64,000 nt of DNA from contig CAVYHN010000009.1 in assembly GCA_963768295.1 (NCBI GenBank), forward strand, positions 262,548-326,547, given 5' to 3'. The position numbers and the translations under genes were made by a program. Positions 38,886 through 64,000 of the stretch are shown piece after piece; position 1 is the first letter of the stretch; every line of letters begins with the position of its first letter. The DNA is from an uncultured Gammaproteobacteria bacterium (GTDB lineage Bacteria > Pseudomonadota > Gammaproteobacteria > GCA-001735895). Below the pieces are notes generated by a model. The model was given only the letters and a program-made list of their open reading frames with translations, made no database searches and was not told where the DNA came from.

Positions 38886-38898
38886 GAAACCTTTCCGC

Positions 38899-40002: not shown

Positions 40003-40011
40003 GTCGAACTC

Positions 40012-40701: not shown

Positions 40702-40709
40702 CAGATCAC

Positions 40710-41495: not shown

Positions 41496-41530
41496 GATAC
41501 TTCTCCATCGATTGGTTCTTGATGAAGAAA

Positions 41531-41549
41531 TATGCAGTTACCGTGCCAA
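41531..41549 (-). promoter_or_regulatory. sigma-54 promoter (TGGCAC-GGTAA-CTGCA) directly upstream of flgG
   Basis: Reverse complement TTGGCACGGTAACTGCATA, about 35 nt upstream of the flgG ATG. GG/GC spacing exact. Confidence 0.6.
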
Positions 41550-41805
41550 CAATTCACAGGGAAGTTAGTCGCAAGCATCTCGGTTCGGCGCCAACCGGCC
41601 GTTGCCCTGGCCTCGGCCAGTTACTGCAACCTGCTATTCAAATCCCGCGGGGCATGGCTTTTATTCTCGGTTCCGGGTTGCAGGGCTAAAGCCGCGAACC
41701 AGCGGCTGACAGATGGATAGACATCCCGTTTTATCGCTAATTTCCTTCACTGGAATAGCAACCAGGGTTACCATGTTGGACATTCGATATTTTGCGAAAA
41801 CCGTT

Positions 41806-42354
41806 ATGTCTTCACTACAGGATCAATTGCTCAAAGCCGGATTGGTAGACCAGAAAAAGGTTGCCAAAGCCAACCGGGATAAAACCAGAAAAGACAATCT
41901 CGCCCGTAAAAATAAAAGCCGAAAAAATGTGGAGCCGACTTCACAGCCAAATCGACTGGATAAAAAGTCGCAACGAGATCGCGAACTCAACCAGCAGCGG
42001 CAGGAGGCGGCCCGGCGCAAGGAACTCGCAGCCCAGGCAAAACAATTGATCGAAGATAACAAGCAGGACAGGACCCAGGGAGAACATCCCTATGGTTTCG
42101 TCTACAAAAACAAGGTGAAAAAAATCTTCGTCACCGAAGCGCAAAAGAAACAACTCGTCCTGGGGCAGCTTGCCATCGTTACCTACGTCACCAACGATGG
42201 TCGGAAATTTGAACTTGTGCCTGGGCCCGTGGGTGAAAAAATAGCCCAGCGTGATACGACCTGCAGCGTGGAAATCCAACAGCAGGAGGAATCCGAGGCG
42301 AATGCAGACGACAGCTATGCAGACTATCCGGTTCCGGATGATTTAACCTGGTAG
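41806..42354 (+). CDS. DUF2058-family protein (YaiL-like)
   Basis: MSSLQDQLLKAGLVDQKKVAKANRDKTRK… Lys/Arg/Gln-rich middle then C-terminal globular part. The ORF-track start 41713 is probably too far upstream. Confidence 0.55.
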   Translation: MSSLQDQLLKAGLVDQKKVAKANRDKTRKDNLARKNKSRKNVEPTSQPNRLDKKSQRDRELNQQRQEAARRKELAAQAKQLIEDNKQDRTQGEHPYGFVYKNKVKKIFVTEAQKKQLVLGQLAIVTYVTNDGRKFELVPGPVGEKIAQRDTTCSVEIQQQEESEANADDSYADYPVPDDLTW

Positions 42355-42591
42355 CACAAACCCCCAGGGCATCATTTTCTCGAGGCTATCTTTCTACTTA
42401 AAGCTAAGGTTTTACGTTGCGCAGTTGACCCCACCGCAGGCAGCGGCAGCCTGGCTATTTACGCTGAGTAGCAAAAAAACCGAGCCAATGCAGATTCTGC
42501 AGGCAAGCAATAAGAACTCATTTCAGAAACGGTCAAGCCGAGGTATGACGAGGGTTGGCAACGGAGATGTCTGCCAGGCAACGGGCGTATG

Positions 42592-42837
42592 CTAAATCGG
42601 TTCCAGCGGCGGATCGAGCAGGTTGAACAGGCGTTCCATGTGTTCGACGGCCTCGCGTCCGCTGTCGGTCAGCTGACCGCCGTCGGGCGCGGTGATCAGG
42701 CCTTTCGCGTGCATGCGACCGGCCGCGGCCAGGATTGCCGGGTCCGAATTGTCGTGGACATTCATCGCTATCGGTCCACCCATGCTGAAACGCCGCAGCA
42801 GGTTCAATTCGTCGATGAGTTCGGGATCTACATGCAT
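42592..42837 (-). CDS. small conserved hypothetical protein (81 aa) downstream of secF
   Basis: MHVDPELIDELNLLRRFSMGGPIAMNVHDNSDPAILAAAGRMHAKGLITAPDGG… Start placed at the internal Met after the secF stop. Confidence 0.4.
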   Translation of the reverse strand: MHVDPELIDELNLLRRFSMGGPIAMNVHDNSDPAILAAAGRMHAKGLITAPDGGQLTDSGREAVEHMERLFNLLDPPLEPI

Positions 42838-42853
42838 GCTTTCCTCCCAGGGC

Positions 42854-43786
42854 TCACGGCCTGGCCAGGTCTTCGCCTTCTTTTTCCGGCACCAGCAGAT
42901 CGCTGCGACTGATGCCGAGCACCAGCGCCGTGGTGGTGGCGACATAGATAGAAGAATAGGTTCCGACCAGGACCCCGATGATCAACGCCGTGGCAAAAGC
43001 GTGGATCACCTCGCCACCAAGGAAGAACAACGATAGCAATACCAGCAGGGTGGTGAAGGACGTCATCAAGGTACGTGAAATGGTCTGATTGATCGAGGTA
43101 TTGACCACTTCGAGCGATGTTTTTTTGCGAATCTTGCGGAAGTTTTCGCGCACGCGGTCGAACACGACGATGGTGTCGTTGAGCGAGTAACCGATAACCG
43201 CGAGAATCGCGGCCAGCACGCTCAGGTCGAAATTCAGCTGCAGCAGCGAAAACACGCCCAGCGTGATCATCACGTCATGGATCAGGGCCGCCACCGCGCC
43301 GAGCGAAAAACGATACTCGAAGCGAAACGCGACATATACCAGGATTGCGATCAGCGCGTATAGCACCGCCAGCCCGCCGTCCTCGGTGAGTTCCTCGCCA
43401 ACCTGGGGCCCGACGAAGTCGACCCGGCGGACTTCGATCTCGGTTTCGCTAACGGCTTCCAGCAGGCCGATAATCTGTGAACTCAGTTCAGCCTTGTCCT
43501 TACCGGACTCGGGGACCAGTCGAATCAATACTTCGCTGGCGCTGCCGAAATGCTGCACGATGGCATCGCCGAAACCCTCGCCTTCCAGCGCCTGACGAAT
43601 GGGCTCGAGCTCGACCGACTGCGGGTAGCCGACCTCGATAATGCTGCCGCCGGTGAAATCGATGCCGACATTCAGCTTCAGAGTAACCAGGCTAATAACT
43701 GAAACCAGCAACAAAGCCGCCGATATCAGCATCGCCGGTTTGCGCAGCGCCATGAAATCAAAGTTGTTGAGTAATGTCTTGGCCAT
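42854..43786 (-). CDS. secF: protein translocase subunit SecF
   Basis: 310 aa, 6 TM helices, SecD/SecF family. Confidence 0.9.
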   Translation of the reverse strand: MAKTLLNNFDFMALRKPAMLISAALLLVSVISLVTLKLNVGIDFTGGSIIEVGYPQSVELEPIRQALEGEGFGDAIVQHFGSASEVLIRLVPESGKDKAELSSQIIGLLEAVSETEIEVRRVDFVGPQVGEELTEDGGLAVLYALIAILVYVAFRFEYRFSLGAVAALIHDVMITLGVFSLLQLNFDLSVLAAILAVIGYSLNDTIVVFDRVRENFRKIRKKTSLEVVNTSINQTISRTLMTSFTTLLVLLSLFFLGGEVIHAFATALIIGVLVGTYSSIYVATTTALVLGISRSDLLVPEKEGEDLARP

Positions 43787-43788
43787 AA

Positions 43789-45658
43789 TCAGATCGCCAG
43801 CCGGGTTACCTGTTTACGTCCGTAAATCAGGTTGATGATTGCGCGCGTGCCGAATATCGCGGTGAACATCGACGACACGATACCGATCATCAGCGTCACC
43901 GCGAATCCCTGGATCGGACCGGTGCCGAAGCCGAACAATACGATGGCGGCGATAAAGGTTGTGATATTGGCGTCGGCAATGGTGCCAAAGGCCTTTTCAT
44001 AGCCGGCGAAAATTGCCGCCTGCGGCGTGTTGCCGTTACGCAATTCCTCGCGAATGCGCTCGAATATCAGTACGTTGGCGTCGACCGCCATACCGACGGT
44101 GAGGACGATACCGGCGATGCCGGGCAAAGTCAGGGTCGCCTGAAAAATCGACAGGATAGCCACCATCAGCACCAGGTTCAGGCTCAGCGCAAGGTTTGCC
44201 ACCAGGCCGAATACCTTGTAATAAACCGCCATGAATACCAGCACCAGCACAAAACCGACCAGTACCGAGAGGAAACCGCGATCGATGTTTTCCTGTCCCA
44301 GGCTCGGGCCCACGGTGCGTTCTTCGACGATCACCATCGGTGCGCGCAGCGCGCCGGCGCGCAGTAACAATGCCAGGTCACGGGCTTCACGGGTGCTGTC
44401 GAGGCCGGTGATATGGAAACGCTTGCTCAGCTGATCGCGAATCGTGGCGACATTGATGACCTGCGACTCGGTGGTCCTGATGCGCTGCTTTTCCCCTTCG
44501 ATCTCGCGAAATTCGAACTTGTCCTCGATGAAAACAACGCCCATCGGCTTGCCGATGTTATCGCGCGTGATTTTCGCCATGCGGTCGGCGCCCTTGGCAT
44601 TCATCGTAATCGTGACATCCGGCGTGCCACTCTGCTGGTCGATACCCGAAGCCGCGCCGACGATCTGGTCACCGGTAACGATGACGCTACGCTTGAGCAA
44701 GACCGGGTCGCCGTTACTCTGACTGTAGAGCCGGGTTCCGATGGGCGCCTTGCCGGCAGCCTGGGCCGCACTCCAGTCGGAGAAACTGCCGTGCACCAGG
44801 CGAAACTCGAGGGTTGCGGTCGCGCCCAGGATTTCCTTGGCGCGTACCGTGTCCTGCACGCCCGGTAACTGCACCACGACGCGCTCGTCACCCTGGCGCT
44901 GGATTACCGGCTCGGCGACACCGAGTTCGTTGACGCGATTCTTGAGGGTGGAAATATTCTGTTCAATCGCGGCGCGACGCTCTTCTTCGAGCGCAGTGGG
45001 ATTGTAGCTGATGTCGATAAACCAGCTGCGATCGTCGTTGCTGTCGACAAACTCGAAGTCACGAAACTCCTCTTCCAGTATCGGGCGCGCGGCATCGCGG
45101 GTTTCGGCGGAGGTAAAACGAATGCTGATCGATTCTTTACTCGCCTGCACCGCCTTGTAGCGCACTTTTTCTTCACGCATGAAGCTGCGCAGCTCGCCGG
45201 AGGCGCGATTCAACGACTTTTCGATCGCCGACTCCATATCGACTTCCATCAAAAAATGCACCCCGCCGCGCAGATCGAGGCCGAGGTACATCGGTAATGC
45301 GTTCAGCGCCGTCAGCCAGTCCGGTGTCGCCGGCGCCAGGTTAAGCGCAATGCTGTAACGCTTGTCGCTGGCGTGGAGCACATCGCGCATCTGCGTGGCC
45401 GCCTTGAGCTGGGCGTCTTCCGAAGCGAAACGCACCAGTACGTTGTTGCCATCCAGTTCGGCCGAAAGATACTCGATATCCTCGGACTGCAGCAGGCTTT
45501 TGATATTGTTTAACTCGCGCCTCATCGACGAGATTGACCCGATGCGTAATCTGCAGCGCGGGATCTTCACCATACAGATTGGGCGTGGCGTAAACCGCGC
45601 CAATGGCAATAATCAGGATGAGGAGAATATATCTCCAGGGGGCGTAACGATTAACCAT
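43789..45658 (-). CDS. secD: protein translocase subunit SecD (apparent frameshift near 45530-45570)
   Basis: The N-terminal 40 aa (MVNRYAPWRYILLILIIAIGAVYATPNLYGEDPALQI, ATG 45658) are in one frame. The remaining ~590 aa (…SSMRRELNNIKSLLQ… to the C-terminus) are in the -1/+1 frame (ORF 43789..45609). Both segments align collinearly to SecD. Confidence 0.8.
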
Positions 45659-45663
45659 CGGGA

Positions 45664-45993
45664 TTATAGATTCTTGATGGTGCCCTTGGGCAATACGGAG
45701 GCAATCGCGTGCCGCTGAATCTTGACTTCGACGTTGTCGGAAATCTTGCAGGTCAGGAAATTATCATCAACGTCGGTGATCTTGGCCAGCAAGCCGCCAT
45801 TGGTGATGATTTCATCGCCCTTGTTGAGCGCTTCGACCATGTTCTTGTGCTCTTTTGCCTTTTTCTGCTGTGGACGGATCAGCAGGAAGTAAAATATGCC
45901 GAACATCAACAGCAGCGGCAAAATCAGCTCCAGGGTGCCGGCTGACCCCCCTTCGGCTCCCTGCGCTAGCGCATCACTTATAAAGAAACTCAT
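45664..45993 (-). CDS. yajC: preprotein translocase subunit YajC
   Basis: 109 aa, single TM plus conserved YajC motif (…LLIRPQQKKAKEHKNMVEALNKGDEIITNGGLLAKI…). Confidence 0.9.
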   Translation of the reverse strand: MSFFISDALAQGAEGGSAGTLELILPLLLMFGIFYFLLIRPQQKKAKEHKNMVEALNKGDEIITNGGLLAKITDVDDNFLTCKISDNVEVKIQRHAIASVLPKGTIKNL

Positions 45994-46103
45994 TTCGATA
46001 AACCCCTGGTTTGCGATTGATTAGCCCGGGGCCCTGCCACCAAGCGGCGCGTATTATGGCACTAGGGCGGTCATCCCACAAGACGGAAGCGAATTTTTAC
46101 TCG

Positions 46104-48244
<2,141 letters not shown>

Positions 48245-48380
48245 GGTCGGGCCGGGTTAAAAACGCCGTATAATAACCCCAATGCCCGGGACACCAAACT
48301 TAATTTGCGCTTCGAGCGCGTAGTGCGCTCTCGGGATCACTACCACTTGCCCTGATTTTGAATTAGAATGCGCCCTCTTT

Positions 48381-48466
48381 GCCGGGGTGGCGGAACTGGT
48401 AGACGCGGCGGATTCAAAATCCGCTGGTGGTAACACCTTGGGGGTTCGAGTCCCCCCCCGGTACCA
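48381..48466 (+). tRNA. tRNA-Leu (anticodon CAA)
   Basis: GCCGGGGTGGCGGAACTGGTAGACGCGGCGGATTCAAAATCCGC…GGGGTTCGAGTCCCC…ACCA. Long variable arm, anticodon loop TT-CAA-AA, encoded CCA. Confidence 0.85.
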
Positions 48467-48485
48467 GCCTCGAGCAGGCTGAGTT
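48463..48485 (+). terminator. rho-independent terminator after tRNA-Leu
   Basis: CAGCCT-CGAGC-AGGCTG hairpin followed by AGTTTT immediately after the tRNA 3' end. Confidence 0.45.
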
Positions 48486-48642
48486 TTAACGCTAGACCAG
48501 CCCCTCTTTACTGCAGGCTTACCCCCTTGCTGACATCCTGTCGCAGTGTCAGATGTTCGCTATAGCGTCCCATCAAATGCCAATGGGGTATCTAGTCAGT
48601 GGCAAGCGCACAAGCTCAGGTCAATCCAGATGCAGGTATCTG

Positions 48643-50535
48643 TTACCCGAAGTTCAATATTAATCGAACCTGCGTTCCTGTCAGGGATCCGTTTATTTCA
48701 AGCTTTGCTCCAAGTTGCCCTGCGCGGTAGTGCATGTTCTTTATGCCCCGCCCTGCACTATTGCCGCCGGTGCTATTCTGCAAACCCCGGCCATAGTCGA
48801 TGATGTCAATATAAATCTGTGAATGTTCTGTTGCCAGCACCCCCGTCGTTAAGGTCAATTTCGCGGACCCAGAATGTTTGGCGCTATTGTTAATCGCCTC
48901 CTGCAGGATGCGCATGATGTGCAAACACTCGCCAGGCCCAATTGCCTCGCATTCGGGAAGATCAGTCACCGCCCACTCAAGTTCCATATTCGCCGAGCTA
49001 AGCTGCTCGGTAAATCGCATCCTCATCATTCCCAACAAGGTCGGCAAATCGCTGAGTACCGGGTCGAGCGAATCAATGACCAGACGCAAATCGGTTAAAC
49101 TGTGCTGCACCTTGTCACGAACGTTTCCAAAAACCTCTCCGCTTTTATCCTGCAACTGCGCGACGATGGATACCAGTTGCCCGCCGATACCATCATGCAT
49201 GTCACGCATGATTCGCTCACGCTCCTCTGCAAGCAGCCGTTTTTGCTCCGATATCCGCAGTTCCTGGTACTGGTTCTCCAGAGTCATCTGCTTTTCCCTT
49301 ACCCGTTGCTCGAGCACGGCAGTCATTTCTTCGGCCTGATTTATCGAACGCACGAAACGTCTGATCATGAACCAGCTGAATAACATGATTGATGGGATAA
49401 CACTGTACTGGACGATCAGTCCGTCAAGGCGGTCGATTAAATTATTCAGCAGCAAATAGTCATGCAGGCCTGAGACCAGGATGGGCATGCCGACTAAAAG
49501 CATCAGAAAAGCATCCTGAGCCGTTTTGTGATTTTTCTCTTCGCGGTAGTAAACAAATAGCAGATGCGAAATAGCGTAAATACCCAGCAGGCAAATACCG
49601 GTATCAAGAATGTGATAACCGACGTAATGGACGCTACTGACATCCGGAAGAAAAAGTAAACCGATGCTGGCGAGCGCGAAATACAGAATGATCTTTTCTA
49701 TTTTTTTATTCGCATAACCTACATAGCTGTGATTGAAGAAAATCATGGTCACGATCGTCCACACAAACGAAACCAGAATAACGGCCTCCCACAGACGAGT
49801 AGACACCGGCACGCCGGTGACAAACAGGTTTAGGTTATGCGTAGCCCAGAGAAACAGTTCCAGAGAAAACAAGGCGTAGACAATATCCTTGCGCCTGGCC
49901 AGCCAGAAGGCAAAAACGATCATCGACATGAAATACATCGCGGCGGTAATCCACTGAATAAATTCAAAACGGACCAGCCGCTTCCAGTCATAGGCAGGCT
50001 GTAGCTTTTTTGCCGGGCCGAAATAAAAACGATCGAGTAGACCCTGCTTGCCGACGGTGGTCTGCATTCGAATGTGAATACGGTTTTCACCCGAACGTAA
50101 CAGGTTTGACGAAAAGTTGATCATTAGTGGCTGATTGTGATGCCGCGACAAGGGCTCATCAAAACTGCCACCCTGGCCCACCCAGAGGCCATTGACATAC
50201 ACCGCGGCATTGTGAAAAACCATGGGCAAGTACACGGCCCATGCCGCCTCGGATCTGTCTTCAACGACAATTGTGGCCCGATACCAGGCACGATCCACCT
50301 GGGAATCTCGTTTCGCCCAGTCATCGGGTAACGACGCGGGCTGCCAATCCCCGGTTGGTAATTGAGCGGGTTCAGACAAATCGCTTGCGAGGTATTCGAG
50401 TTTTTCGATAGCCGGCAACTGTGGTTCGAAAAAAATACTGAATGGGGTATGAAAAACGACGACATTTAACAATGCCAGATAGATAAACAGAATCGAAAAC
50501 GCTGTGATTTTATGCCGGGTAAACCATGAAAACAT
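48643..50535 (-). CDS. 7TM-receptor-type sensor histidine kinase (periplasmic 7TMR-DISM-like sensor + 7 TM + HisKA_3 + HATPase), copy 1
   Basis: 630 aa: N-terminal extracellular domain, 7 TM helices, H-box RIMRDMHDGIGGQL (NarX/DegS-type), ATPase G-boxes. Confidence 0.85.
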   Translation of the reverse strand: MFSWFTRHKITAFSILFIYLALLNVVVFHTPFSIFFEPQLPAIEKLEYLASDLSEPAQLPTGDWQPASLPDDWAKRDSQVDRAWYRATIVVEDRSEAAWAVYLPMVFHNAAVYVNGLWVGQGGSFDEPLSRHHNQPLMINFSSNLLRSGENRIHIRMQTTVGKQGLLDRFYFGPAKKLQPAYDWKRLVRFEFIQWITAAMYFMSMIVFAFWLARRKDIVYALFSLELFLWATHNLNLFVTGVPVSTRLWEAVILVSFVWTIVTMIFFNHSYVGYANKKIEKIILYFALASIGLLFLPDVSSVHYVGYHILDTGICLLGIYAISHLLFVYYREEKNHKTAQDAFLMLLVGMPILVSGLHDYLLLNNLIDRLDGLIVQYSVIPSIMLFSWFMIRRFVRSINQAEEMTAVLEQRVREKQMTLENQYQELRISEQKRLLAEERERIMRDMHDGIGGQLVSIVAQLQDKSGEVFGNVRDKVQHSLTDLRLVIDSLDPVLSDLPTLLGMMRMRFTEQLSSANMELEWAVTDLPECEAIGPGECLHIMRILQEAINNSAKHSGSAKLTLTTGVLATEHSQIYIDIIDYGRGLQNSTGGNSAGRGIKNMHYRAGQLGAKLEINGSLTGTQVRLILNFG

Positions 50536-50600
50536 AACTGTCCGCCCGCTTCTTTGGAGCTAGTGCATATAGCTCACAAGAGAAATATCCGCTGATACCG

Positions 50601-51245
50601 CTAAGGTAAGAGCCCCTGTTGAATCGCCTGGTAAATAGCTTCTGATCGGCTGTTAACCTGCAGCTTATTATATATATTTTTGATATGCGTGGTGACGGTG
50701 TAATACGTGATGCCCAGTTTCTCGGAAACCTCTTGCGCCGAGAAACCCTGGCTCAACAGTTTCAGAATCTTTGTTTGCCTTGGGGTTAAGGCTTCGGGCA
50801 AAGGAATCGTCTGGGTTTGCACATTATGAAACTTCAACAGCATCAGCCGCGCAATAACCGGGCTCATCGGGGCACCGCCATCGATCATGGCGAGAATGGC
50901 ATCGGTGATTTTCTGACTCTTATCGTGTTTTAGAATATAGGCTTTGGCACCCGCTTCCAGTGCCTTGAACACCAGGTTTTCATCCTGAAAACCGGAAATC
51001 ACCATCGCGTCGCAATCCAGGTGCTGTTGCTCGATGGCCCTGATAATGTCGATACCGGAACCATCCGGCAAGCCGAGATCGGTGAGCAACACATCCGGTT
51101 TATGTTGAGATAAGGCCGACAAACCCTGCTCCATCGTGCCGCAGGCATCGAGCAGCTCGAACTGCTCGTGCTCCGCAATCAGGCTTGATAAACGACCCCG
51201 TACATCGGCATCATCCTCGACCAGCGTCACGGTATATTTATGCAT
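50601..51245 (-). CDS. NarL/FixJ (LuxR)-family response regulator, copy 1
   Basis: 214 aa, receiver (…DVLLTDLGLPDGSG…) plus C-terminal LuxR HTH (…ALTPRQTKILKLLSQGFSAQEVSEKLGITYYTVTTHIKNIYNKLQVNSRSEA…). Confidence 0.9.
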   Translation of the reverse strand: MHKYTVTLVEDDADVRGRLSSLIAEHEQFELLDACGTMEQGLSALSQHKPDVLLTDLGLPDGSGIDIIRAIEQQHLDCDAMVISGFQDENLVFKALEAGAKAYILKHDKSQKITDAILAMIDGGAPMSPVIARLMLLKFHNVQTQTIPLPEALTPRQTKILKLLSQGFSAQEVSEKLGITYYTVTTHIKNIYNKLQVNSRSEAIYQAIQQGLLP

Positions 51246-51347
51246 TGTTCATTAATCCGGAAAACATGCCTGTTATTGTAATGGCTGGCAGCGGCGTATC
51301 ACATTCACCCAGGGCATTGAGGGACAGATCGGAACCGAGATCCGCAG

Positions 51348-52221
51348 CTAGTAAATATACACCGAGCCGGCAAAGGAAGCGCTGTTATCCGACTGATCGC
51401 CACCGATACCGGTGGTCACACTATCCTCATCAGTGGCCCCCACTGCCAGGGTGCCGCCGTCTCCAGATAAGGCCAGGTTTAGACCGAACTCATCATTATC
51501 CTCGGTATTTGAAGCCTTGACGTAACCGATAGCCTCGACCAGATTAGCCGATAAGACCAACTCCGCAGAGGCGCATACCATCAACTTGACCAGAATGTTC
51601 CTTTGCAATCAGTTGATTATTATGCTCGATATCCTGATTGTATTGTAAACTAAAGTAATTATTTTCTATTCGACCTTCTTGCAATTCACCGCGACAAGAA
51701 TTCTTAAGACAAAAATTCACGACTTTCCAATTATATTTCGTCTTACATTGTCGACATTCTTGTTGAGGACCATTAACCGATTTTTTAACAACTAAAATAT
51801 CCGGATGCAACAACAATGCTTCTTGATTTCGATGCATATAATTTTCTATATAACCCATTTCGGTTAAAAAGGCAACAGCTTCATTCAAGTATGCTTCTTG
51901 GTTTTGAATATCATCACCGAAACATCTTCGGGTCCAGGTAGTCAAAGTTCGAGAAGTTCTTAATGCGAATGTATTAAAACGGTCCCCAAGCAATCTTCTT
52001 TGCTGCGGTTCAGCATTTGAAAAACATCCGGGTTTTGTTCCTTCAACAGCTTCAAATATTCTTTTGTCCGGAAGTATTTGACTTATTGGAACTATTACTT
52101 GTTGACCAAATGTTTCTCTATCAAGTAAGTTAGGATGGTTAAAGGCATTCTCTCTTCGGAATATATCCATTATCCCCTTGAGGTAATCATGCGCCAGATC
52201 AGGATTTTCAGCCGAAAGCAA
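51348..52221 (-). pseudogene. low-GC gene X copy 1: Cys-rich N-domain plus C-terminal FG-GAP-like repeat, split by a 2-nt indel
   Basis: ORF 51544..52221 (…CRQCKTKYNWKVVNFCLKNSC…NNQLIAKEHSGQVDG) and ORF 51348..51608 (…CASAELVLSANLVEAIGYVKASN…FG…LALSGDGGTLAVGATDEDS…VYIY) are contiguous in the right-arm copy but out of frame here (GGTATGCGCC versus GGTTGTTGCGCC). GC content drops to about 35-40%. Confidence 0.45.
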
Positions 52222-52416
52222 ATCATTACTCTTTAAATTAAATGAGTCTAATTTGCTTTCGGGTGAAAATCCAGATCTGACGCATGATTATCTCAAGGGT
52301 ATAATGGATATTTTCATAAGAGAAATGCTTTTAACCATTCTAACTTACTTGATAGAGAAACATTTGTCAACAGGTAATAATTCCAATTAGTCAAATACTT
52401 CCGGATAAAAGAATAT

Positions 52417-53118
52417 TTGAAGCTGTTGAAGGAACAAAAGTTCAGGGGTGTTTTTCAAACGCTGAACCGCAGCAAAGAAGAATTGCTTGGGTGCCGTTTT
52501 AATCCTTTCGCATTAAGAATTTCTCGAACTTTGAATACCTGGACTCGAAGATGTTTTGGTGATGATATTCAAAACCAAGCATACTTGAATGAAGCTGTTC
52601 CTTTTTAACCGAAATGGGTTATATAGAAAATTATATGAGTCGAAAGCATTGTTGTTGCATCCGGATATTTTAGTTGTTAGGAATTCGGTAATAGGTCCTC
52701 AACAAGAATGTCGACGATGTAAGACGAAATATAATTGGAAAGTCAGTGAATTTTTGTCTTAAGAATTCTTGTCGCGGTGAATTGCAGAAGGTCGAATAGA
52801 AATAATTACTTTAGTTTACAATATCAATCAGGATATCGACGTAATAATCAACTGATTGCAAAGGAACATTCTGGTCAAGTTGATGGTTGTTGCGCCTCTG
52901 CGGAGTTGGTCTTATCGGCTAATCTGGTCGAGGCTATCGGTTACTTCAAGGCGTCGAATGCTGAAGCAAGTGATGAGTTCGGCACGACCCTGGCCTTATC
53001 CGCTGATGGCAGCACCATGACAGTGGGGACTGTTGATGAGGATAGTGCCTCGACCGGGATCGGTGGCGATCAGCCGGATAACAGCGCTACCTCTGCAGGT
53101 GCGGTGTATATTTACTAG
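52417..53118 (+). pseudogene. low-GC gene X copy 2: N-domain degraded by multiple frameshifts and stops, FG-GAP tail intact
   Basis: ORF fragments 52417..52608 (…FALRISRTLNTWTRRCFGDDIQNQAYLNEAV…) and 52777..53118 (…NNQLIAKEHSGQVDGCCASAELVLSANLVEAIGYFKASN…AVYIY) match copy 1. Intervening frames are broken but still show similarity (LLLHPDILVV…GPQQECRRCKTKYNWKV). Confidence 0.4.
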
Positions 53119-53219
53119 CTGTGGATCTCAGCTCAGACCCGTTTGCCAATGCCTGGCCGAATGTGAAATATTGGTGTCAGCCATTACAATAACAGGCATG
53201 TTTTCCGGATTAATGAACA

Positions 53220-53864
53220 ATGCATAAATATACCGTTACGCTGGTTGAGGATGATGCCGATGTACGGGGTCGTTTATCAAGCCTGATTGCGGAGCACGAG
53301 CAGTTTGAGCTGCTCGATGCCTGCGGCACGATGGAGCAGGGTTTATCGGCCTTATCGCAACATAAACCCGATGTGTTGCTCACCGACCTCGGCTTGCCGG
53401 ATGGTTCCGGTATCGACATTATCAGGGCCATTGAGCAACAACATCTGGATTGCGACGCGATGGTGATTTCCGGTTTTCAGGATGAAAACCTGGTGTTCAA
53501 GGCACTGGAAGCGGGGGCCAAAGCCTATATTCTAAAACACGACAAGAGCCAGAAAATCACCGACGCCATTCTCGCCATGATCGATGGCGGTGCTCCGATG
53601 AGCCCGGTTATCGCGCGACTGATGCTGTTGAAGTTTCATAATGTGCAAACCCAGACGATTCCCTTGCCCGAAGCCTTGACCCCGAGGCAAACCAGGATTC
53701 TGAAACTGTTGAGCCAGGGTTTCTCGGCGCAGGAGGTTTCCGAGAAACTGGGTATCACTTATTACACTGTCACCACGCATATTAAAAATATATATAATAA
53801 GCTGCAGGTTAACAGCCGATCAGAAGCTATTTACGAGGCGATTCAACAAGGGCTCTTACCTTAA
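53220..53864 (+). CDS. NarL/FixJ (LuxR)-family response regulator, copy 2
   Basis: 214 aa, differs from copy 1 at 2 residues (K to R, Q to E). Confidence 0.9.
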   Translation: MHKYTVTLVEDDADVRGRLSSLIAEHEQFELLDACGTMEQGLSALSQHKPDVLLTDLGLPDGSGIDIIRAIEQQHLDCDAMVISGFQDENLVFKALEAGAKAYILKHDKSQKITDAILAMIDGGAPMSPVIARLMLLKFHNVQTQTIPLPEALTPRQTRILKLLSQGFSAQEVSEKLGITYYTVTTHIKNIYNKLQVNSRSEAIYEAIQQGLLP

Positions 53865-53928
53865 CGGGTCAGCGAAAATTTTTCTTGTAAGCTATATGTA
53901 GTAGCTGCAGAGGGAGTGGCAGACATAT

Positions 53929-55821
53929 ATGTTTTCATGGTTTACCCGGCATAAAATCACAGCGTTTTCGTTTCTGTTTGCCTATCTGGTATTGTTAAAT
54001 GTCATCGTTTTTCATACTCCATTCAACATTTTTTTCGAACCACAGCTGCCGGCTGTTGAAAAACTCGAATACCTTGAAAGTGATTTATCTGAGCCCGCTC
54101 AATTACCAACCGAGGATTGGCGGCCCGCGTCGTTACCCGATGACTGGGCGAAACGAAATACCCAGGTAGATCACGCCTGGTATCGGGCCACAGTTATCGT
54201 TGAAGACAGACCCGAGTCAGTATGGGCCGTGTACCTGCCCATGGTTTTTCACAATGCCGCGGTGTATGTCAATGGCCTCTGGGTGGGCCAGGGCGGCAGT
54301 TTTGATGAGCCGTTGTCACGGCATCACAATCAGCCACTAATGATCAACTTTTCATCAAGCCTGTTACGTTCGGGTGGGAACCGTATTCACATTAGAATGC
54401 AGACCACCGTCGGCAAGCAGGGTTTACTCGATCGTTTCTATGTCGGCCCGGCAAAAAAGCTACAGTTTGCCTATGACTGGAAGCGGTTAATCCGGTTTGA
54501 ATTTATTCAGTGGATTACCGCCGCGATGTATTTCATGTCGATGATCGTTTTTGCCTTCTGGCTGGCCAGGCGCGCGGATATTGTCTACGCCTTGTTTTCC
54601 CTGGAACTGTTTCTCTGGGCTACGCATAATCTAAACCTGTTTGTCACCAGCGTGCCGGTGTCTACTCGTCTGTGGGAAGCCATAATTCTGGTTTCGTTTG
54701 TCTGGACGATCGTAACGATGATTTTCTTCAATCACAGCTATGTTGGTTATGCGAACCGGAAAATAGAGAAGATAATTCTGTATTTCGCGCTCGCCAGCAT
54801 CGGTTTACTTTTTCTTCCGGATGTCAGTAGCGTTCATTACGTCGGTTATTACATTCTTGATACCGGTATTTGCCTGTTGGGTATTTACGCTATTTCACAT
54901 CTGCTATTTGTTTACTATCGCGAAGAGAAAAATCACAAAACAGCCCAGGATGCTTTTCTGATGCTTTTAGTCGGCATGCCCATCCTGGTTTCAGGCTTGC
55001 ATGACTATTTGCTGCTGAATAATTTGATCAATCGCCTGGACGGACTTGTCGTTCAGTACAGTGTCATCCCATCAATCATGTTATTCAGCTGGTTCATGAT
55101 CAGACGTTTTGTGCGTTCGATAAATCAGGCTGAAGAAATGACTGCCGTGCTCGAGCAACGGGTAAGGGAAAAACAGATGACCCTGGAGAGCCAGTACCAG
55201 GATCTGCGAGTATCGGAGCAAAAAAGGCTGCTTGCAGAGGAGCGTGAGCGAATCATGCGTGACATGCATGATGGTATCGGCGGGCAACTGGTATCCATCG
55301 TCGCGCAGTTGCAGGATAAAAGCGGAGAGGTTTTTGGAAACGTTCGTGACAAGGTGCAACACAGTTTAACCGATTTGCGTCTGGTCATTGATTCGCTCGA
55401 CCCGGTGCTCAGCGATTTGCCGACCTTGTTGGGAATGATGAGGATGCGATTTGCCGACCAGCTAAGCGCGGCGAATATGGAACTTGAGTGGGCGGTGACC
55501 GATCTTCCCGAATGCGAGGCTATCGGACCTGGCGAGTGTTTACATATCATGCGTATCTTGCAGGAGGCTATTAACAATAGCGCCAAACATTCTGGATCCG
55601 CTAAATTGACCTTAACGACGGGAGTGCTGGCTGCAGAACATCCGCAGATTTATATTGACATCATCGATTATGGCCGGGGTTTGCCGAATAACACCGGCGG
55701 CAATCATGCAGGGCGGGGCATAAGGAACATGCACTACCGCGCAGGGCAACTTGGAGCAAAGCTTGAAATAAATGGATCCTTAACGGGAACACTGGTTAGA
55801 TTAATATTGAATTTTCGATAA
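53929..55821 (+). CDS. 7TM-receptor-type sensor histidine kinase, copy 2
   Basis: 630 aa, same architecture as copy 1 with about 40 substitutions, concentrated in the N-terminal extracellular sensor domain and the C-terminal ATPase tail. Confidence 0.85.
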   Translation: MFSWFTRHKITAFSFLFAYLVLLNVIVFHTPFNIFFEPQLPAVEKLEYLESDLSEPAQLPTEDWRPASLPDDWAKRNTQVDHAWYRATVIVEDRPESVWAVYLPMVFHNAAVYVNGLWVGQGGSFDEPLSRHHNQPLMINFSSSLLRSGGNRIHIRMQTTVGKQGLLDRFYVGPAKKLQFAYDWKRLIRFEFIQWITAAMYFMSMIVFAFWLARRADIVYALFSLELFLWATHNLNLFVTSVPVSTRLWEAIILVSFVWTIVTMIFFNHSYVGYANRKIEKIILYFALASIGLLFLPDVSSVHYVGYYILDTGICLLGIYAISHLLFVYYREEKNHKTAQDAFLMLLVGMPILVSGLHDYLLLNNLINRLDGLVVQYSVIPSIMLFSWFMIRRFVRSINQAEEMTAVLEQRVREKQMTLESQYQDLRVSEQKRLLAEERERIMRDMHDGIGGQLVSIVAQLQDKSGEVFGNVRDKVQHSLTDLRLVIDSLDPVLSDLPTLLGMMRMRFADQLSAANMELEWAVTDLPECEAIGPGECLHIMRILQEAINNSAKHSGSAKLTLTTGVLAAEHPQIYIDIIDYGRGLPNNTGGNHAGRGIRNMHYRAGQLGAKLEINGSLTGTLVRLILNFR

Positions 55822-56355
55822 TTGATACCTGCATCTGGATTGACCTGAGCCTGAAAGTATCTTCACTCAGAGTAAAGCATTCGGATTCAACAGGCCATCA
55901 TCCGTGAACCGCTATACGCAGCCGGACATGGCGCCGTGGTCGGTGAACTTAACCAGGTGACCAATAGGGCGGTGCGGGCAAAACAGGGGTCGAGGTCATT
56001 CTCGATTATTTGGGATCCTCCGCCGGCGCTGAAAAAAAACTTCAAGCCCATACAATCGCACAAATAGAAAACCCCAGGGGACTTGTCGCGGGGAAAATCC
56101 GGGCGGCTCATTCCTGGTTGCGAGAATAGGGCAGAAATCGAATTAGTCGGACAGGCTATTTATAACAAAGATCTTTGACAGGGAGCAATCGAGCAGATAG
56201 CAAATCCAGAAACAGGGTTTCTTCGTACGGAGTTTTGCGGGGATTGGTTGTGCATTGTTATGCTTCGTGGTGCAAAGCCTGGAATCGCGCGCCACATAAG
56301 CTCATGAAAAATAGAGAAGTATAAGTTGGTTTGTAATCTGAAAATCCCCGTGTCG

Positions 56356-56396
56356 GTGCCGAGCGCGGACCGGTTCGATTCCGCCCCTGGGCACAA
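56356..56396 (+). other. tRNA 3'-end-like remnant (T-loop GGTTCGATTCC plus acceptor-like CCCTGGGCACAA)
   Basis: GTGCCGAGCGCGGACCGGTTCGATTCCGCCCCTGGGCACAA resembles the T-arm and acceptor 3' strand of a tRNA-Leu(CAG)-type gene (…GTTCGAGTCTCGCCCTGGGCACCA). No matching 5' half upstream. The intact tRNA-Leu(CAA) 3' end at 48466 is different. Confidence 0.3.
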
Positions 56397-56739
56397 TTTT
56401 TTTCCCATCAACCAGCAATAGCTAATCGAGTGCCTGGCCTGTATCAAATGCTGGTCGCTAGCCTCGATTCTCTTGCGAGCCTTAAAATAGTGCTGTCAAT
56501 ATCGCGGCGCAAATAAAGGTCGAATCGCAAGTTACCTGTTAATCGCAGATTTGCCATCTCTGGAATTGCTTCTGAATCCCGATGACCCGGGAGTATGTGT
56601 CCCTTAGTAACTTCCTTTAGGAAGCAGTGAACGGCATCCATCCGTGCAACATTTCGACGTGTGGCTCGGCATACTACGGCAAGCCTGATTGATCACCTGG
56701 CTTAAATCGTCCAGAGCAGGGCGACAAAATCGATGTTAA

Positions 56740-59821: not shown

Positions 59822-59957
59822 TTTCTTTGAAAGAGATCGGCGAACACTATCGAAAGCATTACACGACGACAGTCGGATTGTAAAAAGTGTTAGAGTTATG
59901 ACTTTGAAAGACCTGACCCCGATAATTTATTGATTGTCGGAAAGATGTGGAGACTGT

Positions 59958-62150
59958 ATGAGTAAACATACATTTTCATTTGGTGGCAAGGTTGCAGTAG
60001 TCACTGGTGCTTCCCGTGGCATCGGCAAGTCTGTTTGTATCGAACTGGCGCGAAGAGGTTGTAGCATTGTCGCAATTGCAAGACCTTCAGATGAACTCAA
60101 TGAAGTCGTAGATGTGCTGCGTGGGCAGGGGCACGACGCTCAGGCGTTCCCTTGTGACCTGAATGATACCGACGCAATTGAAACATTGTGTAAACAATTA
60201 TTACACCAATATGTGCATATAGATATTCTGGTTAACTGCGCAGGAGTTGGTAAATTCGGCCCGATAGATTCGTTGACATTTGCTGAAACACGCGCACCTA
60301 TCAACGTGCCTTTTACTGCTGCAGTTTGCCTGTCCAGGGGGCTGTTGCCGGCAATGATCAATCGGGGTGAAAGTCGGATTATCAACGTGGTTAGTCCGGC
60401 CGGGTATTTCGATTTGCCGTATATGGCCGCATATACGGCGTCACGTTCGGGGCTGTTAAGCTTTACGCGTTCACTGGATGAAGAAGTCAAGTTGCAAGGT
60501 GTCAGGGTACGTTCAGTTTGTCCGGCCTGGGTGGACAGCGAGTATATCAGTCGAAATCAGACCGATGGTGACTGGCTGCCGAAAATGTCGAAATATTTTC
60601 CAGTGGCAAGCACTGACGAAGCAGCGGGCATGGTCATTAAATCTATAGTCGGCAATCGACGGGAATACAAAGCGGGTTGGATACTCAACCTGTGCGTACT
60701 CTGCTATCGCTGGTTTCCACGCCTTTCTGTTGGGAGTTTCAAGATACTGGGACTCTATGCTCCTCCTGCATTAAGCGCAGTCGCAAAAAATCGCAAGGAT
60801 GCCGATGAGTGGACGAATTGGGAAGAAAGTATCTCACTGGAGGCATCGCGCACGACGTTTCCCACCAGCGTCGAGGAAGTCGCTGCCATCGTTGCAAACA
60901 CCAAAGAATATCCATCGCCGCTGCGCGCCGCCGGTTCTCGGCATACAACGACACATTGTGGTGTTGCTGATCGAGGTACCCTGGTCATCATGCGCGATAT
61001 GGATCGTGTCATCGACATCGATGTTGATGCGTTAACGGTTACCGTGCAGGCGGGCGCCCTGTATATCGATGTCTCGGAAGCGCTCAAAGCAAAAGGACTG
61101 CAGTTCTATGTAAACGTTGAAATCGGTAACCTGACCATGGGTAGTGCCGCCTCGACCGGGACGAAAGATGCATCCATGCCGGGCGAATATGGGCAGGTAT
61201 GTTCGTATTGTGTTGGCGTTACCATGGTCATGGCCGACGGCGAAGTGCGCAGCATAAACGAGGATGAACCCGAATTGATGCAGGCAGTTCGTTCCAGCTA
61301 TGGTTTACTCGGTGTGATTGTTGAAACCACTTTCCGCGTGCAATTATTGCGACCGATGTTGGTCAAACACCAAACCTACAGTCTGGATCAGTTTGAGCGT
61401 GTCTTGCCGGAATTGCGCCAACGGAACCAGTCCATCATGTACTACCTGTTTCCATTCCAGAATAAATTAACGGTCGAATTCCGGCAGTATGTTGATGGAC
61501 CAATAACTCGACCCAATCGCTGGAAGTGGCGGCTGCGAAATTTCTTCTGGAAAACACTGGCGCCCAGCTTTTCTTTTTTAGCGACGCGCTTTGTCAGCCA
61601 TCGGCGAATTCGTTACCTGTTAATCGACACCTTCTTCCAGCTTATTCCATTCTTGACCAGGTGGGTTATCAGTAGTCAGAACACATTGGCAGGTGATCAG
61701 ATAATTCGCTATCCGGAGCACAAGAATTTCTCCAAATATACGTTCAGCATCTGGGCATTTCCTGAAGAGAAAATAATGCCCACCATGCGCGCCTATTTCA
61801 GTTTCTGCCAGGACTATTATCGCGATCATGGGTTTCGGTGTGATTTGCTGAACGTGGGGTATCGGATCGAAGCCGACACAAATCCTCTTTTTTCTTATTC
61901 GTATGATGGCACGGTGATGACGCTGGATCCGGTGACTACCGGCGCGCCGGGTTGGGATGACTTTCTAAAGGCCTATAATGAGTTTTGTTCTCAACATGGC
62001 GGTGTACCCCTGTTTAATCAGACAAAGTGGTTAACCCAAAGCCAGGTGCACAAGGCTTTTGGCGATAAAATTGATGATTTTCAAAAAATTCGTCGCAGCA
62101 TGGATCCTGAGGACCGATTATTGAATCGATATTTCAGGGAGTTGTTATAA
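59958..62150 (+). CDS. fusion protein: N-terminal short-chain dehydrogenase/reductase (SDR) plus C-terminal FAD-linked oxidase (PCMH FAD-binding plus ALO/GULO-type C-domain)
   Basis: N-terminus GKVAVVTGASRGIGKS… and …YTASRSGL… give the SDR cofactor and catalytic Tyr-x3-Lys motifs. The middle …VEEVAAIVANTKEYPSPLRAAGSRHTTTHCGVADRGTLVIMRDM… is an FAD-binding PCMH domain. The C-terminus …PLFNQTKWLTQSQVHKAFGDKIDDFQKIRRSMDPEDRLLNRYF matches sugar-1,4-lactone/alditol oxidase tails. GGAG RBS 6 nt before the ATG at 59958. Confidence 0.75.
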   Translation: MSKHTFSFGGKVAVVTGASRGIGKSVCIELARRGCSIVAIARPSDELNEVVDVLRGQGHDAQAFPCDLNDTDAIETLCKQLLHQYVHIDILVNCAGVGKFGPIDSLTFAETRAPINVPFTAAVCLSRGLLPAMINRGESRIINVVSPAGYFDLPYMAAYTASRSGLLSFTRSLDEEVKLQGVRVRSVCPAWVDSEYISRNQTDGDWLPKMSKYFPVASTDEAAGMVIKSIVGNRREYKAGWILNLCVLCYRWFPRLSVGSFKILGLYAPPALSAVAKNRKDADEWTNWEESISLEASRTTFPTSVEEVAAIVANTKEYPSPLRAAGSRHTTTHCGVADRGTLVIMRDMDRVIDIDVDALTVTVQAGALYIDVSEALKAKGLQFYVNVEIGNLTMGSAASTGTKDASMPGEYGQVCSYCVGVTMVMADGEVRSINEDEPELMQAVRSSYGLLGVIVETTFRVQLLRPMLVKHQTYSLDQFERVLPELRQRNQSIMYYLFPFQNKLTVEFRQYVDGPITRPNRWKWRLRNFFWKTLAPSFSFLATRFVSHRRIRYLLIDTFFQLIPFLTRWVISSQNTLAGDQIIRYPEHKNFSKYTFSIWAFPEEKIMPTMRAYFSFCQDYYRDHGFRCDLLNVGYRIEADTNPLFSYSYDGTVMTLDPVTTGAPGWDDFLKAYNEFCSQHGGVPLFNQTKWLTQSQVHKAFGDKIDDFQKIRRSMDPEDRLLNRYFRELL

Positions 62151-62323: not shown

Positions 62324-64000
62324 ATGCAATTACCCGAAGAATACCAAAGACTTGATGCACAGGAACAAAGTGTATTGTTAGATAGCTTGCAGCGACAGAC
62401 AGTACCAATCTGGTGAATGTATTTTCAAGGCAGGTGATGCCGGGGACTATGCCCTGTTTATCGAATCCGGGGATGTTCGGCTGGAATTTGAAGAGCACGA
62501 ACTCGATTGCGAATTAGTTGTTGCAACGATGTGTGCGGGTGACATTGTTGGTGAACTTTCTTTGCTGGATGAAGAAGTTCGATCACTTTCTGCATACGCT
62601 GAAAACGATGTGGAGGTACGCTTACTGAGTCGCCAGGTACTGGATCAGCTAAAGCAGACTAATCCGAAGTTTGCTGCCTCCATGTTCCAGGCACTCGGCA
62701 TGAGTGCCTCTGTAAAGTTACGTAAGGCCAACGATAAAGTAGAAGAGTCGTTGCTGATGCAGCATGGCCATTTAAGTCAGGTCGATGACAAAGTCACCAG
62801 GGCGAGTGACGCGCAAGCAGCTTTCATCGGATGGAGTGAGGCACAAATTGACGAACTTTTATTTCGTATGTGCCAGGTCATTCTGGAAAACAGCCTGACA
62901 CTGGCAGAGCAGGCGGTTAAGGAAACCCGGCTTGGAAACGCAAAAGACAAACAACAAAAGCATGCCAGCGCATGCCTCGGTGTATACGGCGATATCGTTG
63001 CAAAAAAAGGATCGGGTGTTGCTAAAAAACATTTTCATAACGGGGTTACGGAAATCTATGATGCGATGGGCGTCATATTCGGATTGATACCGATGACAAA
63101 CCCGGTATCCACGACAGTTTTCAAGGCGCTTATTTCGGTCAAATCACGTAACAGTATCATTCTCAGTCCGAATCGAATGGGTAGTGTCGTCGTTATGAAA
63201 GTAGTCGATATGCTTCGAGCGGTACTCGCGGAGCACGGAGCACCGGCTGATCTCATTCAGGTCGTTGAAGAGCGACAAAGTCGTCAAATGACGTCAGCAT
63301 TTATGCGTCATTCGGGCGTCGCTTTAGTGCTGGCAACGGGCGGCGCTTCGATGGTCAAAGCGGCTTATAGCTCCGGCACACCGACCATTGGCGTCGGGCC
63401 GGGCAATACGCCCTGTATGATCGCTCATGATGCAAATCTCAAGCATGCAGCAACGTCCATCATTCGCAGTAAAGCTTTCGACAACGGTATTATTTGTGGA
63501 TCAGAACACAATCTGGTTGTTCCAGAATCGATTCATTCTTCACTGTGTGAAAATTTACAAAGCTGCGGGGCAGCGGTTTTGAATGCGGATGAAACGGAAC
63601 TGTTCACCCAGAAAGCATTCACGCCAAAGGGGCATCTGAACCGACGCATAATCGGTCAGGATGCTGTCAAGATTGCCGAATTCATCGGTATAAAACGAGA
63701 CTACCCGATCAAGTTGATTGTCGTGCCCGCAGAAGGCGTTCACGGCAACAATCCATTGGCAAAAGAAAAATCAGCACCGATCGTCAGTTTGTTTACTGTT
63801 TTGGATGATCAAGCAGGCAATCAAACTGTGCGCCGCTATTCTGGAAATAGACGGCGCTGGTCATACTGCGGTTATCCATACGCGCGATCGAAAACTTGCG
63901 CGACAATTTGCCAATACGATCAAAGCGAGCCGGATTCTGGTGAATAGTCCTGGACTACAGGGTATTACCGGTGGTTGCACCGGTTTGATACCGTCTTTCA
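62324..64000 (+). CDS. fusion protein: cyclic-nucleotide-binding (CAP-type) domain plus AdhE-type acetylating aldehyde dehydrogenase domain; two apparent frameshifts; continues beyond window
   Basis: AGGAG-8nt-ATG at 62324. Frame A: MQLPEEYQRLDAQEQSVLLDSLQRQ…stop. Frame B (ORF 62529..63947 and its upstream extension): …YQSGECIFKAGDAGDYALFIESGDVRLEFE…GELSLL…RSLSAYAENDVEVRLLSRQVLDQL… is the cNMP-binding fold. Then …GVIFGLIPMTNPVSTTVFKALISVKSRNSIILSP…ATGGASMVKAAYSSGTPTIGVGPGNTP…FDNGIICGSEHNLVV… is the AdhE ALDH domain. The last 170 nt continue in frame C (…ILEIDGAGHTAVIHTRDRKLARQFANTIKASRILVNSPGLQG…). Confidence 0.7.

Follow-up and report, generated by a model that had tools for sequence, protein, structure and literature searches.

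A 7.2-kb imperfect palindrome of two head-to-head two-component operons beside a tRNA-Leu gene in an uncultured gammaproteobacterium, probably formed by fold-back inverted duplication

We analysed a stretch of 64,000 nucleotides (nt) from an uncultured Gammaproteobacteria bacterium (GenBank assembly GCA_963768295.1, contig CAVYHN010000009.1, positions 262,548 to 326,547 of the forward strand), called the window below, in which two diverged copies of a response regulator (RR) and histidine kinase (HK) operon lie head to head next to a tRNA-Leu(CAA) gene. The structure is probably a fold-back inverted duplication of a single RR-HK operon that arose in a variable region linked to this tRNA gene and was altered by later recombination. 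It is an unusual but explicable rearrangement, and neither a new class of element nor a new mechanism. The bacterium is of marine type, and a search of the E. coli genome gave no match. The original prediction, made from the letters of this window, had reported a 7.2-kb imperfect palindrome whose architecture it could not assign to a described element; the palindrome stands, and fold-back inverted duplication is a described explanation for it.

The 7.2-kb near-palindrome is real, and the likeness of its inverted arms lies far above chance expectation. In an inverted-repeat search and a global alignment, the reverse complement of the left arm was collinear with the right arm (coordinates of all features are given in Table 1), with 3337 matches, 268 mismatches, and 33 unaligned bases in 21 gaps, or 92.6% identity. 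The inverted-repeat search gave an unbroken run of inverted pairs from 48611/55853 inward to 52223/52251. The arms abut at about 52236/52237, where a near-palindromic centre at about 52.24 kb had been predicted, and there is no spacer between them. The symmetry is imperfect only over the innermost ~27 nt (centre sequence ...CATTACTCTTTAAATTAAATGAGTC...), the inner 73-nt arms are 89% complementary, and on folding, the central 201 nt formed one DNA hairpin with a 3-nt loop (-75 kcal/mol, z = -18). Matches to Rfam microRNA-precursor families of plants and animals at 52130-52343, on both strands, were all below their gathering scores and were set aside as generic matches to a long hairpin.

From the centre outward, each arm carries a fragment of a helicase gene, the stump of an FG-GAP lipoprotein gene, the RR gene, and the HK gene. 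Arm-to-arm identity is 85-99% in the HK genes, 92-98% in the RR genes, 75-79% at 51283-51482, and 87-96% in the AT-rich core, which is noncoding and holds almost all of the indels. GC content is 33-39% over 51600-52950, against 50-60% in the flanks, so the low-GC, indel-rich core of the original prediction was recovered, as were its two diverged head-to-head RR-HK copies beginning just past the tRNA gene (145 nt by our count).

Related loci were fetched and numbered (L-numbers); L081-L086 and L159-L163 are close environmental relatives, and L087 is from Formosa. Within the flanks examined, a second HK copy was absent from 109 of 109 loci with a homologous kinase, which answers the question of ancestral copy number that the original prediction had raised for such a comparison. 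A single RR-to-HK operon is present in L081-L086 and L159-L163 (77-96% identical to the window), and in the closest environmental contigs, L081-L085 and L159-L161 (86-96%), the order repeat protein, RR, HK occurs once. This distribution shows that a single copy is the ancestral state.

The environmental contigs align to the left arm over 51525-48611 and to the right arm over 52941-55869, so that their homology overruns the right-arm end by 16 nt, to 55869. A 60-nt patch at 56338-56403 is likewise common to the window and the close single-copy relatives, with 88-91% conservation. Together, the homology past the arm end and the patch indicate that the right arm holds the ancestral downstream flank, and 48610/48611 is the new outer junction of the left, duplicated copy. 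On the other side, homology to the close relatives L164 (93%) and L165 (91%) stops at 48467 and 48470, that is, at the 3' end of tRNA-Leu; L164 is 93-95% identical to the window over 36158-48467. This stop in synteny places the whole structure in a variable region that begins at the tRNA. No transposase, integrase, or invertase was found in the structure or in the rest of 48.5-64 kb, in agreement with the lack of integrase and transposase noted originally, and no copy of the tRNA-Leu 3' end was found elsewhere in the window with up to 3 mismatches allowed.

The innermost part of each arm, called X in the original prediction and placed there at the head of a three-gene module, is by homology an internal fragment of a DruE-like defence-helicase gene of Flavobacteriia type, fused to an FG-GAP stump. 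The left-arm open reading frame (ORF) 51544-52221 had no family match in Pfam, NCBIfam, PADLOC, or PHROGs, a search of 5.8 billion protein clusters with X returned only itself, and JGI metagenome scans gave no close relatives of X or of the RR. Its identity came solely through the one other member of its 90%-identity cluster, WP_091422963.1, a 1608-aa DEAD/DEAH helicase from the flavobacterium Formosa sp. Hel1_31_208 that has DEAD (85-283), Helicase_C (967-1043), and MrfA-Zn-binding (MZB)/DUF1998 (1496-1583) domains and scores as DruE in PADLOC (1e-106). Nucleotide identity to the Formosa gene is 86.0% over 642 nt with 0 gaps for the left fragment (L087 12305-12946) and 78.4% with 12 gaps for the right one (L087 12285-12946), and both copies end at one donor position, L087 12946. 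Codons ~762-982, the only ones kept, fall between the two helicase lobes; DEAD, Helicase_C, and MZB/DUF1998 are all absent, so no functional helicase is present in the window. Nor was a complete Druantia- or DISARM-type system (a large helicase with its partners) found in the window, and the fragment itself drew no PADLOC match. The helicase gene was acquired horizontally; its fragment is 35% GC, the window 55%.

In the closest environmental relatives, an intact FG-GAP lipoprotein gene (596 aa in L081) lies directly upstream of the RR gene. The repeat of the left stump matches the final repeat of the L081 gene at 100% identity, and the stump's leader corresponds to L081 aa 104-122. Helicase and FG-GAP sequences join at a common 7-nt TGATGGT, which by its form is a typical microhomology junction (...CAAGTTGATGGT[TGT/--A]TGCGCCTCTGCGGAG...). 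Both arms have this same junction, which makes the fusion older than the duplication. They also share 88 changes relative to the Formosa gene, 60 of them synonymous, a proportion that indicates that the shared divergence accumulated under coding constraint. The AT-rich centre would thus be pseudogene debris, neither a regulatory nor a mobile part. We considered whether the 53-nt stretch leading from helicase to FG-GAP was filler DNA and rejected this, as it corresponds to FG-GAP codons 104-122. The idea that X, RR, and HK form a conserved module was also abandoned: X is a fusion of two gene remnants, is frameshifted in the right arm, and is absent from all relatives, in which the upstream neighbour of RR varies.

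Taken together, these comparisons allow the event to be reconstructed in order. They show an ancestor that carried one copy of FG-GAP lipoprotein gene, RR, and HK, and an illegitimate recombination at TGATGGT that joined helicase codon ~982 to FG-GAP codon ~105, destroying both genes. A break in the dead helicase gene at about codon 762 would then have been repaired by fold-back; the resulting structure is seen directly, and the mechanism is our reading of it. A resected end, hairpin-capped or self-primed, may have been replicated so that the helicase stump, FG-GAP stump, RR, HK, and 30 bp beyond were copied in inverted orientation, leaving a spacer-less junction. A second, nonhomologous joint at 48610/48611 would have closed the structure, with the old downstream flank staying with the right arm. 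Later, the arms appear to have recombined patchwise with other alleles of the population, as their mosaic suggests, and for this reason the 7.4% divergence between them is not a clock. Head-to-head copies that abut without unique DNA are the expected product of fold-back. We infer the fold-back mechanism from geometry alone, as we would the alternative route of a remodelled tandem inversion duplication (TID).

Precedent for such an event comes from E. coli, in which DNA at a double-strand break is degraded, forms a hairpin, and gives rise to inverted chromosome duplications, a route that SbcCD and RecA oppose (PMC3315005). Central symmetry makes palindromes lethal in E. coli with SbcCD, and a central asymmetry of 20-24 bp is tolerated in rec+ cells (PMC4245961). 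The persistence of this palindrome, which the original prediction found notable, may be less puzzling because its innermost ~27 nt are imperfect, and because exchange between abutting inverted arms would flip DNA and not delete it. The arms are also homeologous, which may help further; a divergence of 7% should lower homologous exchange.

Of the differences among the two arms and the environmental allele L082, 72 were assigned to the left arm, 156 to the right arm, and 85 to L082. Two blocks, 51525-51290 and 50790-50330, stand out: almost every change there belongs to the right arm only, and the left arm matches the environmental contigs at 99-100% identity. Outside these blocks, left arm, right arm, and L082 are about equidistant. 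Block 51525-51290 starts exactly at the onset of homology with the last repeat of the intact FG-GAP gene, and the FG-GAP leader on its inner side does not differ between the arms. Such a pattern is what homologous replacement by a foreign allele leaves behind. This mosaic, asymmetric divergence indicates that recombination followed the duplication. The environmental alleles are mosaic among themselves: L081 and L082 are 99-100% identical except in three consecutive blocks of 150 nt where HK begins, which differ by 3-9%. This indicates that alleles of this locus often recombine in nature.

Several observations weigh against an origin by fold-back duplication. The second junction at 48610/48611 is not explained by a single fold-back alone, and no independent assembly with the palindrome or the helicase/FG-GAP junction was found in protein clusters or JGI metagenome scans. 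From the FG-GAP stump to HK, the left arm is nearer to the environmental single-copy alleles (94-96%) than to the right arm (92-93%). In the helicase fragment, rooted on the Formosa gene, the right copy alone has 36 substitutions and every one of the 12 indels, and the left copy alone has 6 substitutions (binomial p = 3e-6), and its neutral divergence of 6.5% lies under the synonymous divergence (dS) of the genes (0.22). Duplication in situ followed by clock-like decay predicts none of these asymmetries, so that later recombination must be added to the account.

The one-sided decay of the inner arms extends the asymmetry into the helicase fragment, which has no environmental homologue, and it is the sole part of the structure that could hide something new. 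All but one of the 36 right-private helicase substitutions lie within 480 nt of the centre, and 4 of the 6 left-private ones within 12 nt of it. The left ORF is free of indels, and the only 2 changes of its own outside the innermost 12 nt are both synonymous. The left ORF may be under purifying selection, or an intact helicase gene outside the sample may have refreshed the left copy; alternatively, the right arm may have gained a patch by recombination with another strain that bears the junction, or sequence quality may be locally poor in its inner part. A mismatch-repair mutator spectrum was rejected for the right inner arm, as the 36 substitutions comprise 20 transitions and 16 transversions, with no transition bias. 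There is a slim chance that the palindrome is long-lived with its inner arms under different regimes, the left ORF being a selected, domesticated fragment of a helicase transferred between phyla that now heads one operon, or else the asymmetry reflecting a one-sided mutational process linked to the centre of bacterial palindromes.

Both operons appear to be intact, under purifying selection, and functional as paralogues. The RR genes differ at 30 nt and 2 of 214 residues (dS 0.21; ratio of nonsynonymous to synonymous divergence [dN/dS] 0.02), and the HK genes at 130 nt and 43 of 630 residues without indels (dS 0.22; dN/dS 0.15), close to the 2 and about 40 residues given originally. As dS is equal in RR and HK, the RR genes have not been homogenised and are merely more constrained, contrary to the gene conversion that had been suggested for them. 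The original prediction had also placed the kinase differences mostly in the sensor: 22 of the 43 do fall in the N-terminal 188 residues (first transmembrane segment [TM1] and periplasmic domain; N-terminal 30% of the protein), but 11 are in the ATPase domain, so that "mostly" was too strong. By domain, HK dN/dS is 0.86 for TM1 (8 changes), 0.24 for the periplasmic domain, 0.08 for the seven-transmembrane (7TM) block, 0.12 for DHp, and 0.12 for the ATPase domain; no HK domain exceeds 1. Diversifying sensors, as first proposed, thus find no support from positive selection, and part of the N-terminal divergence belongs to the recombinant block 50790-50330.

Residues 1-158 of RR and 429-508 of HK are the same in both copies. 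With the specificity residues of kinase and regulator undiverged, cross-phosphorylation is expected, and two slightly different sensors probably phosphorylate one shared, noninsulated pool of regulator. Each RR gene has kept its ancestral upstream region of ~100 bp, and promoter-like sites, which are matches to a consensus only, are mirrored upstream of each RR gene at 51302-51275 and 53163-53190.

The RR exceeds the Pfam cut-offs for Response_reg (71.5 bits, 8e-20) and GerE (60.1 bits, 1.5e-16); no named NCBIfam equivalog was reached (MadR, 122 against a cut-off of 300). For the HK, HisKA_3 scores 24.8 bits (cut-off 24) and HATPase_c 22.5 bits, just under its cut-off of 26.4, the latter domain being found in 30 of 30 homologues. 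Hydropathy of HK1 gives 1 plus 6-7 transmembrane segments, with a periplasmic stretch of ~150 aa after TM1. HK1 does not match PF07695 (7TMR-DISM_7TM) even at E = 10, and PF07696 (7TMR-DISMED2) has no match between TM1 and the 7TM block. PF07695 is matched by 13 of 30 full-length HK homologues (46-57% identity over 96-99% of the length; best E = 1e-9), which supports assigning the kinase by homology to the 7TM-receptor family, as had been predicted. The sugar-binding jelly-roll family Glyco_hydro_2_N is matched weakly by 3 of the 30.

Table 1. Features of the palindrome and its immediate surroundings (window coordinates)
Feature	Position	Strand	Description
tRNA-Leu(CAA)	48380-48465	+	ARAGORN; Rfam tRNA 46 bits
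Unique spacer, tRNA to left arm	48466-48610	none	145 nt; no match in fetched loci or elsewhere in the window
Left arm	48611-52236	-	Relocated copy; genes directed toward lower coordinates
HK1	48643-50535	-	630 aa; N-terminal transmembrane segment, periplasmic domain of ~150 aa, 7TM block, HisKA_3, HATPase_c
RR1	50601-51245	-	214 aa; REC and GerE/LuxR helix-turn-helix, NarL/FixJ class (Pfam)
Ancestral FG-GAP/RR intergenic region kept in left arm	51246-51347	-	Identical to environmental contigs L081 and L082
Left FG-GAP stump	51348-51581	-	Leader (aa 104-122), one repeat, stop codon
Left helicase-fragment copy	51577-52235	-	Within intact ORF 51544-52221 (225 codons); aa ~762-982 of 1608
Centre of symmetry	52224-52250	none	AT-rich, imperfect over ~27 nt, no unique spacer
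Right arm	52237-55853	+	Copy in ancestral context
Right helicase-fragment copy	52236-52887	+	Decayed, frameshifted; 36 private substitutions and all 12 indels
Right FG-GAP stump	52885-53118	+	Leader and helicase junction as in left; repeat ~20% diverged from left
RR2	53220-53864	+	2 aa (K159R, Q206E) and 30 nt different from RR1
HK2	53929-55821	+	43 aa and 130 nt different from HK1, no indels; DHp region (aa 429-508) the same

It is possible, although unlikely, that the second copy is a xenologue, that is, a fragment of a related strain with the same helicase/FG-GAP junction, inserted in inverted orientation beside the resident copy, so that the divergence of the arms predates their joining. 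The left arm is indeed nearer to the environmental single-copy alleles than to the right arm, with two blocks at 99-100%, and a recombining population is visible in which L081 and L082 are themselves mosaic. However, duplication in situ followed by patchwise homologous recombination yields the same mosaic. The common junction, common leader, and 88 shared helicase changes point to a common origin after the fusion, and an inserted fragment would have had to end at the same helicase codon and abut its partner without spacer, which fold-back leads one to expect and which would be an unlikely coincidence for an insert. Distinctly unlikely, too, is an assembly artefact, in which a read that was chimeric or folded back, or a mixture of coexisting strains, led to the false joining of two single-copy loci. 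The structure rests on a single 338-kb contig, its close relatives are all metagenomic, searches showed the junction in no second assembly, and the indel-to-substitution ratio of the right inner arm is unusually high (12:36 overall, 4:1 in 52717-52941). But fold-back errors give identical arms, and here there are 268 substitutions, with both operons in frame and dN/dS of 0.02-0.15; the arms thus differ by substitutions under purifying selection and not by homopolymer indels only, the pattern that the original prediction had named as a sign of error. Moreover, the outer flanks differ, so that the arms are not one locus seen in two strains, the centre has no long shared k-mer able to misjoin two contigs, and with only 9 gaps against L164 in 12.4 kb, general indel noise in the contig is unlikely.

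An adaptive account, in which the palindrome itself was selected, the sensors are under positive selection, the RR genes were gene-converted, and transcription diverges from the AT-rich centre, appears improbable. The N-terminal concentration of HK changes and the peak of dN/dS there (TM1 and the periplasmic domain), along with RR proteins only 2 residues apart, speak for it. Yet the equal dS of RR and HK leaves no trace of homogenisation in the DNA, dN/dS exceeds 1 in no domain, a single recombinant block found in the right arm only makes up much of the N-terminal divergence, the centre is pseudogene debris, and each RR gene keeps its own ancestral upstream region. More improbable still is that the structure is mobile or switchable, as a composite transposon, the repeat-bounded cargo of an integrative island, or a segment that inverts. 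The appeal of this reading lies in the long inverted repeats, the foreign low-GC core, and the position beside a tRNA gene at a break in synteny, but transposase, integrase, and invertase genes are lacking from the structure and from the adjoining 8 kb on the right, the window has no second copy of the tRNA 3' end, there is no DNA between the arms to invert, and the arms consist of ordinary chromosomal genes that are single-copy in relatives.

It is also important to point out some features of the neighbouring and related loci. The neighbour of RR-HK follows lineage: in the closest relatives it is the FG-GAP lipoprotein gene on the same strand, and in others (L160 1497-3248 and L161 307-2139; distant loci L001, L003, L007, L011, L018, and L020) it encodes an unrelated protein of ~600 aa without a Pfam match, often on the opposite strand, so that only RR-HK is conserved. 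L164 and L165 share 91-95% nt identity with the window over secF-secD-yajC-tgt-queA; past tRNA-Leu they encode an HSP20 protein and a 1216-aa PAS/HisKA/REC/Hpt/EAL hybrid kinase (L164 3397-3870, L165 3989-4890). To the right of tRNA-Leu, the window is entirely different from both and lower in GC, and the far boundary of the variable region lies outside the window. The patch at 56338-56403 (+) has counterparts in L082 (3798-3853), L083 (3447-3505), and L159 (2172-2236). We take it to resemble the 3' half of tRNA-Phe from the anticodon loop onward (TGAAAATCCCCGTGTC ... GGTTCGATTCCG ... GGGCAC, with an insert of ~17 nt). A tRNA call for it was supported by neither ARAGORN nor Rfam; it may be the remnant of an old attachment site. 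Farther right, a 738-aa ORF at 59934-62150 (+) encodes a short-chain dehydrogenase (aa ~15-260) apparently fused to a domain like FAD-linked sugar-1,4-lactone oxidases (aa ~293-731), and an acylating aldehyde dehydrogenase follows downstream at 62529-63947.

The Formosa helicase gene lies in a complete locus of the donor type (L087; LT629733.1 1067014-1091840), a defence island adjoining an integrase-like gene. The island combines DISARM-like with Druantia-like components, with genes for a DrmD-like SNF2 helicase, a DrmMI-like/type IIG methyltransferase, a GmrSD-like nuclease, DUF2779, and NERD proteins.

Fixed in this bacterial chromosome is a clean, natural, kilobase-scale inverted duplication without a spacer, the origin of which can be reconstructed nearly base by base from the microhomology fusion, the fold-back centre, and the ancestral flank that was kept. 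It shows how a two-component system can be doubled at a single stroke, with no need of help from a mobile element, and the structure captures a stage at which paralogous kinases still have identical specificity regions toward their regulators. It also documents a Flavobacteriia-type defence-helicase fragment inside a gammaproteobacterial chromosome.

Among known systems, tRNA-linked islands resemble this locus in that synteny ends at the tRNA-Leu 3' end, GC is lower rightward, and foreign DNA is present; unlike them, it shows neither an integrase gene nor a directly repeated tRNA 3' end in the 15.5 kb that the window covers, its far border lying outside the window. It differs from a composite transposon or insertion sequence element in that its arms are RR-HK genes and pseudogene debris with no transposase matches. 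Human Y-chromosome palindromes and plastid inverted repeats are likewise kilobase-scale inverted arms with functional genes. Their arms are held at >99.9% identity through gene conversion; here the arms are 92.6% identical with dS of 0.2, and there is no sustained homogenisation. Lineage-specific duplication of two-component operons is well known and is followed by sensor divergence and pathway insulation. As in those cases, RR and HK were doubled together, with output conserved and input more changed; unlike them, the RR receiver and HK DHp are still identical, and the arrangement is palindromic and head to head, not tandem or dispersed.

The Salmonella TID, which Kugelberg et al. reportedly described in 2010, is said to form an inverted copy by template switching at short quasi-palindromes, with palindromic junctions remodelled by deletion. 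A direct-inverted-direct triplication that loses one direct copy is left with one palindromic and one novel junction, as in this window. TIDs have three copies and are unstable under selection, whereas the window has two, and no trace of a third was found in it. Fold-back inverted duplications are known from E. coli at a palindrome (Darmon et al. 2010, PMC3315005), from yeast (PMC10622511), and from humans (PMC3907307). In bacteria, the earlier examples arose in the laboratory in sbcCD recA mutants and span large chromosome segments; the present structure is natural and fixed, with diverged 3.6-kb arms, an interstitial position, and a second junction, and its formation is read from its structure. 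What it shares with fold-back duplications is the head-to-head order of the copies, a (near) spacer-less junction in functionless sequence, and a geometry for which a recombinase is unneeded.

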